6,088 bases of DNA from a virus (Duplodnaviria; Heunggongvirae; Uroviricota; Caudoviricetes), in IMG/VR virus record IMGVR_UViG_3300014972_000058; one strand, written 5' to 3'. The notes under the pieces are model-generated. The model searched no databases, was not told the origin of the DNA, and saw only the letters and a list, made by a program, of their open reading frames with translations. Both the position numbers and the translations under genes were made by a program. Below, piece after piece: positions 1,029 through 5,059 of the stretch (its first letter is position 1; each line of letters begins with the position of its first letter).

Positions 1029-1301
1029 ATGGACAATAACACCATTTCTCTACAGGAGTTGCTCGACAGCATTTCCAGGCTTCGGGAAGACGTGAATACC
1101 CTTACCGTCGCCTTCTCATATCTGGCATTCTCAATTCCAAGGGAACAGATGCAATCAACGCTGGCATCAATCCAGTTTGAATCATGCAATCCCAAATGGT
1201 CTCAGGAACAACAAGACTCTTTCAGGCGGCTTGCTGTATTACTGGATGAAAAATATGCTGGTAAAATTACCATTTCGGCGGACTCTTCAGAGAACCCGTA
1301 A
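1029..1301 (+). CDS. Hypothetical 90-aa protein, antisense to the late operon and convergent with the YdfR-like gene (35-bp 3' overlap)
   Basis: GAGGA lies 7 nt upstream of the ATG at 1029. Predicted soluble, helix-rich product (MDNNTISLQELLDSISRLREDVNTLTVAFSYLAF…); no family recognised. A possible promoter TTGCCT(984-989)-N19-TACAAT(1009-1014) overlaps a 7-bp hairpin at 977-996. The competing minus-strand ORF 989-1195 has no RBS and odd composition. Confidence 0.45.
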   Translation: MDNNTISLQELLDSISRLREDVNTLTVAFSYLAFSIPREQMQSTLASIQFESCNPKWSQEQQDSFRRLAVLLDEKYAGKITISADSSENP

Positions 1302-1865: not shown

Positions 1866-1897
1866 TAAAAAAAGCCACCAGTTAAGTACTGATGGCT
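1866..1897 (-). terminator. Rho-independent terminator downstream of nanS-p, upstream of the holin
   Basis: On the minus-strand RNA a 9-bp stem (AGCCAUCAG / CUGGUGGCU, one G-U pair) with a 7-nt loop is followed by seven U. On the plus strand the same stem has a C-A mismatch and no U-tract, so it is minus-strand specific. Confidence 0.6.
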
Positions 1898-1981
1898 CTG
1901 ATAACTCATGCAGGCATCTCAGACGACCCACTGACACTACCGGTGAGTTTAACGATACCTTCCATTTGGCTGGCTCACTTT

Positions 1982-3835
1982 TTATGATGATGCCGGTGCA
2001 TTTATCTCCAGCACCAGACTTTCTATCTCAACGCCATACGCTGCATTTTTGGTAATATCCGTCAGCGTCAGCGCATTCAGCCCCAGTGTCAGACTGTCTT
2101 TTATGACCTGGAATGCCGGGCCAGCCACTCCATTCAGTTTCGGAGTAACCGTGGCACTGCCGGCGGTGAACACCAGCTCCAGCGTCTGCCAGTCGTTACT
2201 GTAATTCCCGAACTCGCCCAACTTTGTGTTTCCTGCTTTCTTGTGATGCATCAGATTCAGTTTGCCGTCTGTGGTCTGGGTGAAGAACGACATCAGGAAC
2301 GGGTTACCAGTCCCGGTCATCGCCACGACGTCAGGTAACGCTACATCGGTATACAGATAAATTCCCAGACCGAACTGGTTGTTGGTCAGTGCGCCTGACA
2401 GTCGAAACTTACAGCTCAGTCTGCCACCCCGTGTCAGCAGGGAGACTGCGTCATCCACCGGGCGCGTCAGGGACCAGGCTTTATTGCTCTGCTTGGTGAT
2501 CTTAAATACACCATCTGACAACTGAATTCCGCCATTCTTAATGCTCCAGCCCTGCGCAGCAGCGTCTCCGGCTGTCGGCAACAGGGAGATTGTGCGTATG
2601 GATGCATCTTCAGACGGCCCCGATGGCGTGTCGCCGCCGGGCGAGGGTTTGATTTCCGGTGCCTTACCACTAATGAAGGCTAAGGTGCGACCGGCTACGT
2701 TCAGAATAGCAGTTGCCATACGATCGGGAATAATGCCACGACGCGCCCATGAGCTGAAATGCGTCGGGCGATTTGATGATACCCAGTTTTTGTTCGTTCG
2801 GGATGCCGAACCGTAATAACCAGACCCGGCAATATCAGGATCTTCTGACGGGTTGTTTGTCGGTGTATTAACTCCGCTACCATCGGTCATAAAGGGAACA
2901 AAATAAATCTGCTGGGATTCTTTACCTTTATATGCACCATATACCACTTCATATTGCGTACCGTGTTCTTGTTTCCACGCGTATGTCGTGTCGCCACAAA
3001 TCCAGGGGACTGATGCCGGACTTCCACCGTGACACTGCGCCGCCAGCCCGGCAAGGTCAGCACGGAACTGCTGTACCATTGCAAGAAATGCTGCTGGCTG
3101 CTGGGCGTAACTGGCATTCGTCATATCGAATTCCCCCTGCATCCAGCATATCGCCAGCAAAACGTTTTTCGGGTTTTTCTGCAATGCTGCCTTCGTGCGG
3201 AAAAGCAGATCCTGATATAACGGCTTACCCACTCCCCAGCGAGCCGAATCCTGACTGGCTCCCGTGGACTCGCTGAATGTCCCCTCCGTGCCCTGGGTGA
3301 ATGCCGAACCACCACGACAGCATGGTACCAGCAGGATCCCCGCATTATTAGGGATATACGGAAGCAGTTTTTTGGCAATATGTAAGCCCTGTCCGACACA
3401 GCCGTACTGCCCTTTGCTCAGGTCAGCCCGGGGATGGTTAATCGTACTCATATCCTGAACATCATGCAGACAATGGTCAGCAGGAATGATGTCGTTAAAT
3501 ACGCATACTTCACCACCGGGAGTCACTGTGTTACGACGGGCCAGTTGCTTAATGCGCGGATGGGGCGCATCGTATGAATCCGGAAGCGGAAGCCCTTCAC
3601 CGTAAGCCATGGCATTGGATTGCCCGGCCAGTACGATGACGTAGTACCACTCCGGCTCAGTTGCACCACTGACGACCACATCACCTTCTGCTGCAATCGC
3701 CTGCATCAGGGTATAAGGGGTTATGGCCACCGGACTACCAAACGGCTGCCAGCCCTCCTTCAGTTTTTGTGTCAGTCGTTTCGCAAGGTCTGACGGCGAT
3801 GCCGCCCTGACCACGTCATAGTGTTTAAATGCCAT
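1982..3835 (-). CDS. nanS: Prophage NanS-p-type 9-O-acetyl-sialate esterase (DUF1737 N-terminus + SASA/SGNH esterase domain + C-terminal domain)
   Basis: 617-aa ORF; N-terminus MAFKHYDVVRAASPSDLAKRL… matches the DUF1737 start of Stx-phage NanS-p as I recall it; GQSN esterase motif at VIVLAGQSNAMAYGEG; GGAGG-type RBS before the ATG at 3835. Position (after the tRNAs, before S) matches the yjhS/nanS-p slot of Stx phages. Confidence 0.82.
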   Translation of the reverse strand: MAFKHYDVVRAASPSDLAKRLTQKLKEGWQPFGSPVAITPYTLMQAIAAEGDVVVSGATEPEWYYVIVLAGQSNAMAYGEGLPLPDSYDAPHPRIKQLARRNTVTPGGEVCVFNDIIPADHCLHDVQDMSTINHPRADLSKGQYGCVGQGLHIAKKLLPYIPNNAGILLVPCCRGGSAFTQGTEGTFSESTGASQDSARWGVGKPLYQDLLFRTKAALQKNPKNVLLAICWMQGEFDMTNASYAQQPAAFLAMVQQFRADLAGLAAQCHGGSPASVPWICGDTTYAWKQEHGTQYEVVYGAYKGKESQQIYFVPFMTDGSGVNTPTNNPSEDPDIAGSGYYGSASRTNKNWVSSNRPTHFSSWARRGIIPDRMATAILNVAGRTLAFISGKAPEIKPSPGGDTPSGPSEDASIRTISLLPTAGDAAAQGWSIKNGGIQLSDGVFKITKQSNKAWSLTRPVDDAVSLLTRGGRLSCKFRLSGALTNNQFGLGIYLYTDVALPDVVAMTGTGNPFLMSFFTQTTDGKLNLMHHKKAGNTKLGEFGNYSNDWQTLELVFTAGSATVTPKLNGVAGPAFQVIKDSLTLGLNALTLTDITKNAAYGVEIESLVLEINAPASS

Positions 3836-4028
3836 GAATCCTCCCGGGCGGGATAATGTTGTGAGTCAGATAAGGAGCAGGCTGAAGTCCGGAAGTTACA
3901 GGACAATGGCAGAAGGGAGACTACAGCCCGCAATTCGAAAAAGACCGCGCAGTTGCGCAGAGTGATTACTATGGGGTATTATTCGCCAGCTGAAATATTA
4001 CTTCACGTTTTATTGTTTATTCCTTGCC

Positions 4029-4057
4029 GCCCGCGTCTCCCAGCGCGGGCTTTTTTT
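4029..4057 (+). terminator. Plus-strand rho-independent terminator with no plus-strand gene upstream
   Basis: GCCCGCG (4029-4035) pairs with CGCGGGC (4044-4050) around an 8-nt loop, followed by T7 (4051-4057). On the minus strand the stem is preceded by the A-run, so it is plus-strand specific. Confidence 0.55.
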
Positions 4058-4061
4058 GTCC

Positions 4062-4330
4062 ATAAGAAAGCCCCTCCGGAGAGGGGCTAAAGCCGCGTAT
4101 CTGTATCATCATGCACATGGTGCCGGGTGCCTCCCGGTGAGTTCAGCCCGGTGCCACTAAACCCGCGTCATTCTCGTTTTGATAATCAGAGATTATACCG
4201 TCACCAGTCGCCCCTCCGCTCAGGGGGATTCACCATGCGAAATTTTTTTAACAAATGCCCAGTCTGACAGGCAACTGTCAACTTACTGAATTGTGAGCAA
4301 CATAGCATTTAACGGGGAACCTGTTTTCTG
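4062..4330 (-). repeat. Copy 1 of a diverged ~240-bp direct repeat unit; candidate structured sRNA gene ending in a hairpin plus U-rich tract on the minus strand
   Basis: Shares with copy 2, in the same order: the perfect hairpin AGCCCCTC-CGGA-GAGGGGCT (4069-4088), CATGGTGCCGGGTGCCTCCCGGTGA.TTCAG (4116-4146), GCCCCTCCGC.CAGGGGGATTCACCATGC (4210-4238), TTTTAACAAA and CTGAATTGTGAG (4286-4297). Spacers between blocks differ in sequence and length. On the minus strand the hairpin is followed by UUCUUAUG. Confidence 0.5.
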
Positions 4331-4361
4331 CAGTAAAAAGGCCCACCGGAGCGGATGGGCC
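4331..4361 (-). terminator. Minus-strand intrinsic terminator immediately upstream (in transcription order) of repeat copy 1
   Basis: GGCCCA (4340-4345) pairs with TGGGCC (4356-4361) around a 10-nt loop; on the minus strand it is followed by UUUUUACUG (plus-strand A5 at 4335-4339). Confidence 0.5.
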
Positions 4362-4547
4362 TGGAAGGATAGCGGTCATGTGATGCCGGTTTCCCGGTAA
4401 CTCAGCACCGGTATCTGAGTCAACGTTTTCTCTACTGGGTCATTTCCGATACGCCCTGCCTGCTGACAGGCTTTCATCACATCTGAAAATATAGCACCCT
4501 GACTGATACTGTAGTACCTAAGGTTCCAGAAACTGTGATGTATCCGG

Positions 4548-4770
4548 CACAGAAAAGCCCCTCCGGAGAGGGGCTGGAGAGTGGCGCTATGTGCCATTGC
4601 ATGGTGCCGGGTGCCTCCCGGTGAATTCAGTACCAGCACCTGAATCCGCGATTATCCCATATACCTACTCGCTGATTGCCCCTCCGCACAGGGGGATTCA
4701 CCATGCCAGTTTCTTTTAACAAACTCCCCGCAAACCAGACAACAGTCAACCGCCTGAATTGTGAGACATT
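4548..4770 (-). repeat. Copy 2 of the diverged ~240-bp direct repeat unit; candidate structured sRNA gene with 3' terminator hairpin on the minus strand
   Basis: Same conserved blocks as copy 1, offset 468-487 bp: hairpin 4556-4575, block 4600-4630, block 4678-4706, CTGAATTGTGAG at 4754-4765. On the minus strand the hairpin is followed by UUUCUGUG. Lies between the tRNA-operon terminator and the 4331-4361 terminator. Confidence 0.5.
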
Positions 4771-4771
4771 T

Positions 4772-4794
4772 AAAAAAAGCCCGCAAAAGCGAGC
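4772..4794 (-). terminator. Rho-independent terminator of the tRNA cluster
   Basis: Minus-strand RNA GCUCGC-UUUU-GCGGGC (6-bp stem with one G-U pair) followed by U7; 16 nt downstream of the last tRNA. Confidence 0.6.
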
Positions 4795-4809
4795 CAGGGA
4801 AAATAAGTG

Positions 4810-4886
4810 TGGCGCGTTGTACTGGATTCGAACCAGTGACCGATTGCTTAGAAGGCAATTGCTCTGTCCGGCTGAGCTAACAACGC
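4810..4886 (-). tRNA. argO: tRNA-Arg (anticodon UCU), canonical cloverleaf with encoded CCA
   Basis: Reverse-complement GCGTTGT-TA-GCTC…GAGC-A-ATTGC-CTTCTAA-GCAAT-CGGTC-ACTGG-TTCGAAT-CCAGT-ACAACGC-G-CCA: all stems perfectly paired, anticodon TCT. Gene name assigned only by position in the ileZ-argN-argO order recalled for Stx phages. Confidence 0.85.
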
Positions 4887-4899
4887 AGGATACAGATAA

Positions 4900-4976
4900 T
4901 GGACCGCCTTCGGGGACCCGAACTCCGCGCAACCAGCTTCGAAAGCTGGCGCTCTTTCCTGATGAGCTAATGGCGG
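4900..4976 (-). tRNA. argN: tRNA-Arg-like (anticodon UCG by my fold), imperfect stems; may be functional or a decaying copy
   Basis: Reverse-complement CCGCCAT-TA-GCTC…GAGC-G-CCAGC-TTTCGAA-GCTGG-TTGCG-CGGAG-TTCGGGT-CCCCG-AAGGCGG-T-CCA. D and anticodon stems perfect; one A-A mismatch in the acceptor stem, one A-C mismatch in the T stem, and G at the usual A58 position. Name by position only. Confidence 0.6.
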
Positions 4977-4983
4977 TATGTGA

Positions 4984-5059
4984 TGGTGGCCCTTGCTGGA
5001 TTTGAACCAGCGACCTGGCGATTATGAGTCGCTCGCTCTCACCACTGAGCTAAAGGGCC
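4984..5059 (-). tRNA. ileZ: tRNA-Ile2 (anticodon CAU, lysidine-type, reads AUA)
   Basis: Reverse-complement GGCCCTTTAGCTCAGTGGTGAGAGCGAGCGACTCATAATCGCCAGGTCGCTGGTTCAAATCCAGCAAGGGCCACCA: canonical cloverleaf, CAT anticodon, and much closer to my recollection of E. coli ileX than to elongator tRNA-Met. Confidence 0.8.

Follow-up and report, generated by a model that had tools for sequence, protein, structure and literature searches.

What are the repeated, terminator-bounded units that lie between the tRNA genes and the esterase gene of a lambdoid prophage, in the slot occupied by stx in Shiga-toxin phages? We addressed this question in a 6,088-nucleotide (nt) stretch of DNA (the window; IMG/VR virus record IMGVR_UViG_3300014972_000058, Caudoviricetes), a lambdoid prophage late region whose late-gene strand is the minus strand. 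The original prediction, made from the letters alone, had placed two diverged tandem copies of a structured unit at 4062 to 4794 and read them either as an undescribed pair of small RNAs (sRNAs) or as members of the AgvB/AsxR class of anti-sRNA sponges. We identified both repeated units as the known lambdoid prophage sRNA STnc100, also reported as EcOnc27 and sRNA103; the units are real and their family has already been described. The array is made up of three STnc100 genes, two canonical and one strongly diverged, arranged head to tail on the late strand from the tRNAs to the esterase gene, and its limits are about 4058 and 4797. The finding is the rediscovery from raw sequence of a curated RNA family, not a new class. 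What is added is modest: a third unit below the family cut-off, a three-unit array recurring in a second prophage lineage, a pseudoknot supported by covariation and the identity of a convergent plus-strand candidate partner.

Both repeated units match STnc100 over its full length

In a covariance-model scan with Rfam 15, where the STnc100 model (RF02076) has 206 positions and a cut-off of 47 bits, copy 1 matched at 4267-4058 (minus strand, 165.4 bits, E 2e-38) and copy 2 at 4735-4545 (minus strand, 136.3 bits, E 7e-31), each over model positions 1-206. Because the two copies match one curated covariance model end to end, chance is excluded. Prophage Sp5 of Escherichia coli O157 Sakai, used as a positive control, gave STnc100 at 207.7 bits and directly after it, on the opposite strand, AsxR at 88.1 bits. 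STnc100 is the name of the Rfam prediction, and the same RNA has been described as EcOnc27 from Sakai Sp5 (Tree 2014, PMC4104026) and as sRNA103 from EDL933 (PMC7873438, PMC12711010). Published quantitative PCR primers for STnc_100, an RNA found in outer-membrane vesicles of E. coli strains that make Shiga toxin (PMC12370729), match copy 2 exactly at 4686-4705 and 4613-4632.

Five blocks are shared by the copies in the order that had been proposed. They include repeat pairs of 88 nt (4210-4297 / 4678-4765, 80 % identity) and 31 nt (4116-4146 / 4600-4630, 97 %) and a hairpin repeat of 22 nt (4067-4088 / 4554-4575, 100 %), identity over the whole unit being 70.6 %. The elements of the two copies, all on the minus strand, are as follows.

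4058..4297, minus: STnc100 copy 1 (Rfam match 4267-4058)
4297-4286, minus: conserved leader box CTCACAATTCAG of copy 1
4238-4231 with 4122-4115, minus: predicted core-closing helix P1 of copy 1
4227-4211, minus: predicted hairpin P2 of copy 1
4137-4123, minus: predicted hairpin P5 of copy 1
4164-4157 / 4146-4139, minus: predicted hairpin Pb of copy 1
4207-4202 with about 4153-4148, minus: predicted pseudoknot Pa of copy 1
4114-4089, minus: variable linker of copy 1
4088-4069, minus: terminator of copy 1
4545..4765, minus: STnc100 copy 2 (Rfam match 4735-4545)
4765-4754, minus: leader box of copy 2
4706-4699 with 4606-4599, minus: predicted P1 of copy 2
4695-4679, minus: predicted P2 of copy 2
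4621-4607, minus: predicted P5 of copy 2
4647-4640 / 4630-4623, minus: predicted Pb of copy 2
4675-4671 with 4637-4633, minus: predicted Pa of copy 2
4598-4576, minus: linker of copy 2
4575-4556, minus: terminator of copy 2

These matches leave no place for an undescribed sRNA pair. That the units might instead be sponges of the AgvB/AsxR type was suggested by their lying in the same prophage region as the known sponges. However, the scan found no match to AgvB (RF02702), AsxR (RF02703) or Esr41 in the window at E ≤ 1, while the Sakai control recovered AgvB at 40.9 bits in addition to AsxR, and size and strand also speak against membership, so that we give this reading hardly any weight.

A third, diverged unit lies between the copies

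The claim of two tandem copies stood, but the sequence between them (4331-4547), previously taken for mere spacer, holds a third diverged unit of the same architecture. It matches STnc100 with 30.1 bits (E 0.001), under the 47-bit cut-off, and is 56-58 % identical to copies 1 and 2 in the alignment.

4333..4539, minus: diverged STnc100-like middle unit (Rfam match 4506-4333)
4482-4475 with 4385-4378, minus: predicted P1 of the middle unit
4471-4458, minus: P2-like hairpin of the middle unit
4397-4386, minus: P5 of the middle unit, reduced to CCGG-GAAA-CCGG
4421-4415 / 4405-4399, minus: predicted Pb of the middle unit
4362-4339, minus: the middle unit's own terminator

The elements follow one another in the same order as in copies 1 and 2, with ATCACAGTTTC as the leader box. 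All consensus helices can be formed with altered sequence: the closing helix is a perfect 8 bp (AUGUGAUG/CAUCACAU) in which both strands differ from CAUGGUG/CACCAUG, and the pseudoknot is kept as a 7-bp Pa duplex (-9.4 kcal/mol). Of 5426 complete E. coli genomes 673 carry the middle unit, 346 at ≥ 99 % identity and 327 at about 85 %. The latter form (strain 4/2-1) is likewise flanked by two canonical STnc100 copies. Most of its differences fall in the P2 hairpin and the terminator hairpin, both rebuilt from other sequence at equal stability, and the remaining core is almost identical. Such variation looks like the pattern of a maintained RNA, not of a decaying remnant.

We also considered whether the middle unit is PasD, and rejected this; its alignment to PasD2 of enteropathogenic E. 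coli (EPEC) E2348/69 gives STnc100-type core features only, and the middle unit is a lineage separate from PasD.

Covariation supports a pseudoknotted core

We searched one genome for each species with the 19-nt P5 block and obtained 120 loci, mostly from Enterobacterales and including Salmonella, Shigella, Klebsiella, Enterobacter, Kosakonia, Pantoea, Erwinia and Rahnella; a few of the 120 are GC-rich chance matches from unrelated phyla. Rfam at its own cut-off called STnc100 in 18 of 18 re-tested loci. A profile search showed that conservation between genera extends over the P1-closed core (about 105-140 nt); leader and 3′ parts are specific to lineages. We aligned 100 non-redundant cores from many Enterobacterales genera with MAFFT, which is blind to structure. 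Taking P1, P2, Pb, P5 and a trial pseudoknot together, 84.3 % of cells were paired compared with 73.6 % in shuffled alignments, a value reached by 0 of 500 shuffles, and cells with both sides changed numbered 460 versus 186. Sliding the partners by 1-3 columns lowered pairing to 40-47 %. Compensatory changes were numerous in P1 (85.7 % of cells paired), P2 (98.2 %) and Pb (82.5 %) alike. P5 does not vary, but this is a mere consequence of the search pattern, and the same holds for the block CACCGGGAGGCACCCGGCA, whose invariance is uninformative; GAAUCC...GCGG.GGGGC lies outside the search pattern and is ≥ 90 % conserved across genera.

The stems that had been proposed from the two copies were confirmed: CATGGTG/CACCATG is P1, CCCCC/GGGG is P2 and CCGGG/CCCGG is P5, and compensatory changes are found in P1, P2 and Pb. 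The STnc100 consensus helices formed are the closing helix, the CCCCC/GGGG hairpin, the GGGUUCAG/CUGAACUC hairpin and the CCGGG-AGGCA-CCCGG hairpin. Together with the full-length model matches, covariation upholds the reading of the units as a structured non-coding RNA family on the late-gene strand.

The segment just 3′ of P2 can pair with the Pb hairpin loop in nearly every sequence, and the letters involved vary between members. Counted by columns in a fixed register this helix, Pa, is 55.9 % paired, the strands being out of register in many MAFFT rows. In a register-free test the cognate duplex averaged -8.9 kcal/mol versus -5.4 kcal/mol for non-cognate pairs (z = -15), and the own partner was better than a foreign one in 97 % of sequences. 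With one of its strands in the Pb loop and the other beyond that hairpin, Pa is an H-type pseudoknot. It can be found in all three window units and does not appear in the Rfam consensus line displayed by the search. The predicted fold consists of the closing helix P1, the hairpins P2, P5 and Pb and the pseudoknot Pa. For copy 2, the fold of lowest energy wrongly pairs P2 with the terminator.

A further reading, that the units encode a small protein or a module resembling a type I toxin-antitoxin system, draws on short open reading frames (ORFs) that begin at the ATG of P1 on either strand, on a RefSeq pseudogene opposite copy 2 and on ribosome footprints reported for some STnc100 copies of EDL933 (PMC5331693). 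However the P1 ATG is present in 13 of 100 family members, its rarity being due to the covariation of P1, and the ORFs differ in length and frame between the copies, as had been noted before, while substitutions fit helices rather than codons. This makes a coding function extremely improbable. The RefSeq entry, a partial "hypothetical protein" pseudogene at 4591-4716 (plus strand) overlapping the STnc100 core, is most likely a spurious call.

Genomic setting and occurrence of the array

The 1301 bases around the array are 100 % identical to E. coli CE10 (O7:K1), avian pathogenic E. coli (APEC) O18 and other chromosomes, and ≥ 80 % of this stretch is present in one piece in 341 of 5426 complete E. 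coli genomes. The CE10 annotation shows, in order, a Q antiterminator, a small ORF, a DNA methyltransferase, tRNA-Ile(CAT)/Arg/Arg, an unannotated gap of 975 nt, a SASA-family (NanS-type) esterase, a holin, a YdfR-family protein and lysozyme; the STnc100 array is the content of this gap. It is bordered in the window by the following features.

4810..5059, minus: tRNA cluster with anticodons CAT (annotated tRNA-Ile, ileZ-like), TCG (Arg) and TCT (Arg), which in Stx phages precedes stx
1982..3835, minus: gene for a SASA-family (NanS-p/YjhS-type) carbohydrate esterase, the first coding gene downstream of the array

The correspondence with the stx slot was confirmed in Shiga-toxin phages. In the Stx2a phage Stx2_95 the order is tRNAs, stx2A, stx2B, one STnc100 and the yjhS/nanS esterase, and in Sakai Sp5 STnc100 starts 75 nt past stx2B. 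Copy 1 is about 90 % identical to the unit of Stx2a phages and is the counterpart of the unit after stx2B, the place of stx2AB being taken here by copy 2 and the sequence between the copies.

Several observations concern the flanking genes. The CAT-anticodon tRNA (4984-5059, minus strand) is called tRNA-Met by ARAGORN and tRNA-Ile by RefSeq and the Stx-phage literature; being ileZ-like, it is presumably read as Ile after lysidine modification. A strong late-strand terminator (1871-1899, minus strand) separates the stop of the esterase gene (1982) from the start of the holin gene (1831). A PasA homologue between these genes was considered and rejected, as the PasA-bearing segment of about 300 nt in E2348/69 is missing here and the shared terminator alone is left. 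Opposite the lysis genes, a 90-amino-acid ORF at 1029-1301 (plus strand) overlaps the YdfR-family gene at its 3′ end; CE10 has this ORF annotated as a hypothetical protein.

In other genera the conserved neighbours are Q antiterminators of two unrelated families (PF03589, PF06530) upstream and P21-type holins downstream, a setting that matches the window. In nine species (Klebsiella, Kosakonia and relatives) a single core lies about 100-200 nt upstream of a KdgM-family porin gene in the same direction, a context that is not an obvious prophage late region; the nine porin-linked loci share a conserved upstream box TGTGTAAAAGT at varying spacer length. Other copies outside obvious prophage late regions adjoin dcp. 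Tandem arrangement is frequent, with 2-6 units in 15 of 110 arrays, among them six units on a Pantoea plasmid. Outside Escherichia, arrays of 3-6 cores spaced about 120-570 nt apart were seen at seven loci, one of them on the 400-kb plasmid pAPP145_2 of Pantoea sp. App145, and some array units are without recognisable terminators. Rfam matches to isrI (RF01392) adjoin STnc100 units at two Enterobacter loci, and a conserved ORF of about 62 amino acids (MKEGYYWIQH...) with no Pfam match recurs beside STnc100 units in six loci.

Multiple copies within genomes and unrelated intergenic contexts, such as that upstream of the KdgM-family porins in nine species, might point to selfish or decaying DNA, either a miniature mobile element or duplicated functionless junk, and arrays could come from unequal crossing-over. 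However compensatory changes keep four helices across genera, the middle unit and its 85 %-identical relative keep helices through different sequences, and the transcripts of homologues are abundant and bound by Hfq. Around the porin-associated copies we saw no signature of a mobile element, neither terminal repeats nor target duplications. We consider this origin quite improbable.

Terminators and candidate promoters

Between 3800 and 5200 the window contains 10 terminator-like sites where 1.3 are expected, compared with 4 versus 3.8 in the rest. Minus-strand terminators bound each unit as had been claimed (4795-4778, 4575-4556, 4362-4339 and 4088-4069). Two late-strand sites lie outside the units.

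4778..4795, minus: intrinsic terminator after the tRNA cluster, directly upstream of copy 2
3945..3960, minus: fifth late-strand terminator-like hairpin (CTGCGCAACTGCGCGG and a T run), just upstream of the esterase gene and conserved in Sakai Sp5

Across the family, 61 of 144 units are followed by a terminator within 130 nt, as against 15 % of controls; its median distance from P1 is 27 nt. Promoter-like -35/-10 pairs that end 4-8 nt before P1 and match at ≥ 8 of 12 positions are found in 43 % of 110 distinct units, versus 6 % of random windows from the same loci. Prophages of other genera show a Q gene, a promoter, a short terminated leader and then the STnc100 core, which is preceded by good -35/-10 pairs (for example TTGACG-17-TACATT) from which transcription would begin at the foot of P1. 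In E. coli-type units a further conserved leader of about 60 nt is present. The 235/247-nt Northern sizes of EcOnc27 suggest by analogy that transcription begins close to the conserved CACAATTCAG box. Between the three window units the linkers are unrelated (GCAUGAUGAUACAGAUACGCGGCUUU, AAUGGCACAUAGCGCCACUCUCC, GACCGCUAUCCUUCC).

This arrangement raises the question of whether the units act in cis, as riboswitch-like attenuators or as a terminator stack of the late operon, the short RNAs then being terminated by-products. The folded core would sense a ligand or protein and gate read-through into the esterase and lysis genes. The core does resemble an aptamer, being closed by P1, pseudoknotted and furnished with near-invariant loops, followed by a variable stretch and an intrinsic terminator; five late-strand terminators fall within 975 nt directly upstream of the esterase and lysis genes; and in every conserved context found the units are co-directional with the downstream gene, be it a holin, esterase or KdgM-family porin. 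Against this, promoter-like elements are enriched at the position for a start at the P1 base, and in the prophages inspected the units follow the pR′-tR′ leader and do not form it. No conserved antiterminator pairing was found, the similarity between P2 and the terminator in copies 1 and 2 being missing in the Sakai and middle units, and more than half of the family has no detectable terminator. Functions of the downstream genes are heterogeneous, and Q already explains late read-through in lambdoid phages. Action in cis is on balance unlikely. Assignment to a riboswitch or cis-attenuator class was considered and not adopted, as neither a conserved alternative pairing nor a coherent set of downstream genes was found.

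A proposed function for the STnc100 units

The units are probably three independently transcribed, Hfq-dependent base-pairing sRNAs, each with a conserved folded core, a variable 3′ seed and a terminator. From the homologues and the anatomy of the units, in the lysogen each would have a weak sigma-70-type promoter and an intrinsic terminator of its own, which would yield a separate transcript of about 185-240 nt. In it the conserved core would serve as a stable scaffold. The unit-specific stretch from P1 to the terminator, the terminator hairpin and the U tail would make up a module that binds Hfq and carries the seed for pairing with RNAs of the host or phage, different linkers directing each copy to different targets. 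In lytic growth all units would be transcribed through by Q-modified RNA polymerase, and in the lysogen the stacked terminators might as a by-product block read-through from upstream morons into the lysis genes.

Homologues have been shown to be discrete Hfq-associated RNAs of about 200-250 nt (PMC4104026, PMC5331693), and by analogy the units here may be the same. EcOnc27 gives Northern bands of about 235 and 247 nt in enterohaemorrhagic E. coli (EHEC), of which the 247-nt species is destabilised without Hfq, and has an Hfq peak over the 3′ ~80 nt by UV crosslinking and analysis of cDNA (CRAC) (PMC4104026 supplement). Eleven STnc100 copies are transcribed in EDL933, one of them verified by Northern blot (PMC5331693). 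Over-expression of sRNA103 raises fimZ and espA transcripts (PMC7873438, PMC12711010), and haemolytic uraemic syndrome is reportedly predicted by variation in the copy after stx2 (PMC12711010). The seed model is supported by the Hfq crosslinks of EcOnc27, which map to the 3′ module, and by the PasD seed in the equivalent linker.

A number of points weigh against this proposal. The transcription evidence comes from homologues and not from this prophage, so that its extension to the window is by analogy, and no direct target has been validated for any STnc100 copy. A consensus promoter scan of the minus strand of the window reported none, and the candidates from a looser anchored search are weak (copy 1, CTGTCA-17-AAAAAT, 8/12; copy 2, 7/12). 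Sp5 has no terminator between stx2B and STnc100, and some family members could be products of 3′ untranslated regions rather than primary transcripts. Folding z-scores of single units are unremarkable (-1.3 to -1.8), and for this reason the structural case rests on covariation. Finally, a plain base-pairing sRNA would not usually have an invariant multi-helix core with a pseudoknot, and the presence of this core hints at another function, whether in addition or instead.

The last point leads to the alternative that the core is itself the functional part: it would bind a protein of the host or phage, so as to sequester or recruit it, or undergo processing as a tRNA-like substrate does. The very high conservation of junction and loop sequence across genera and the pseudoknotted multi-helix fold would fit such a role, and arrays of up to six cores would multiply the sites. 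There is however no candidate partner, with no protein gene consistently linked to the units, Hfq crosslinks fall on the 3′ module and not on the core, and the invariance of CACCGGGAGGCACCCGGCA is an artefact of the search. We regard a core-centred function as doubtful. A broader and equally speculative proposal, which we would not expect to hold, is that STnc100 is a modular cassette in which an ancient near-invariant pseudoknotted core, binding a protein or small molecule or directing processing, is joined to exchangeable 3′ linkers and stacked two to six times in lambdoid prophages of Enterobacterales to diversify regulation. If this were true, the pseudoknot and the below-cut-off third unit would be its first structural hints.

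STnc100 is among the most frequently annotated bacterial "sRNAs". With a family so widespread, experiments on the core could make use of the pseudoknot, of arrays that vary mainly in their 3′ linkers and of diverged members missed by annotation.

A convergent candidate sRNA downstream of copy 1

In Sakai, AsxR occupies the place directly after STnc100, and the equivalent place in the window holds a candidate on the opposite strand.

3990..4057, plus: candidate convergent partner sRNA in the AsxR/AgvB slot (terminator 4029-4050; putative start coordinate)

Its terminator stands back to back with that of copy 1. The candidate has no match to the AsxR or AgvB model and is not a family member by sequence; it is identical in the Stx2a phage Stx2_95, where as here the only match is a weak one of 25 bits to OmrA-B. 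It is about 88 % identical to "E2348C_1409.E2348C_1408.IGR", an EPEC candidate from the sequencing of ligated interacting RNAs (RIL-seq), whose proposed seed CUUGCG reads CUUGCC in the window. A -35-like TTGCGC (3953) and a -10-like TATTAT (3977) precede it, and the 3945-3960 palindrome would supply this -35-like element both here and in Sp5, in a putative promoter role. The terminator and the homology to the EPEC candidate together suggest a plus-strand partner RNA.

Comparison with known systems

The closest system is EcOnc27/STnc100 itself. Strand, slot (after the morons and before the nanS esterase and lysis genes), leader box, core helices and terminator are common to both, the unit length of about 220-240 nt agrees with the 235/247-nt Northern bands, and as in Sp5 a convergent partner RNA, here a candidate, follows copy 1. 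The window differs from Sp5 in that three tandem units replace stx2AB and one unit, the 3′ linkers are unlike that of the Sp5 copy, the middle unit is under the Rfam cut-off and the convergent partner is not AsxR.

EcOnc27 is the late-strand member of the "convergent sRNA dyad" whose other member is AsxR or AgvB (Tree et al. 2014, PMC4104026). AgvB and AsxR share with STnc100 the prophage neighbourhood, Hfq binding and the combination of a conserved with a variable targeting part. They are however 51-60 nt long, antisense to the late operon and without a complex fold, whereas the window units are about 207-240 nt and on the late strand; there is no sequence or model similarity, and the conserved 3′ block of about 42 nt is missing from the window units. 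AgvB and AsxR are convergent neighbours of STnc100-type RNAs and not their relatives.

PasD1 and PasD2 of EPEC E2348/69, homologous to EcOnc13, are distant STnc100 relatives (PasD2 scores 41.4 bits against the STnc100 model), and STnc100 has been described as a common neighbour and distant relative of PasD (Zhu, Shabalina and Storz, bioRxiv 2026). PasD likewise sits directly upstream of the esterase gene, is Hfq-dependent and carries its seed in the 3′ linker. RIL-seq targets are known for it (PMC8550237 supplement), and in our alignment the seed derived from them sits in the linker equivalent to the STnc100 3′ linker. By sequence, however, no window unit is PasD.

Lambda 6S RNA and StxS, the pR′-tR′ leaders, are likewise short terminated late-region RNAs of the lysogen, and StxS binds Hfq. 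They start at pR′ directly after Q, whereas STnc100 lies downstream of tR′ and the morons and its units appear to have promoters of their own.

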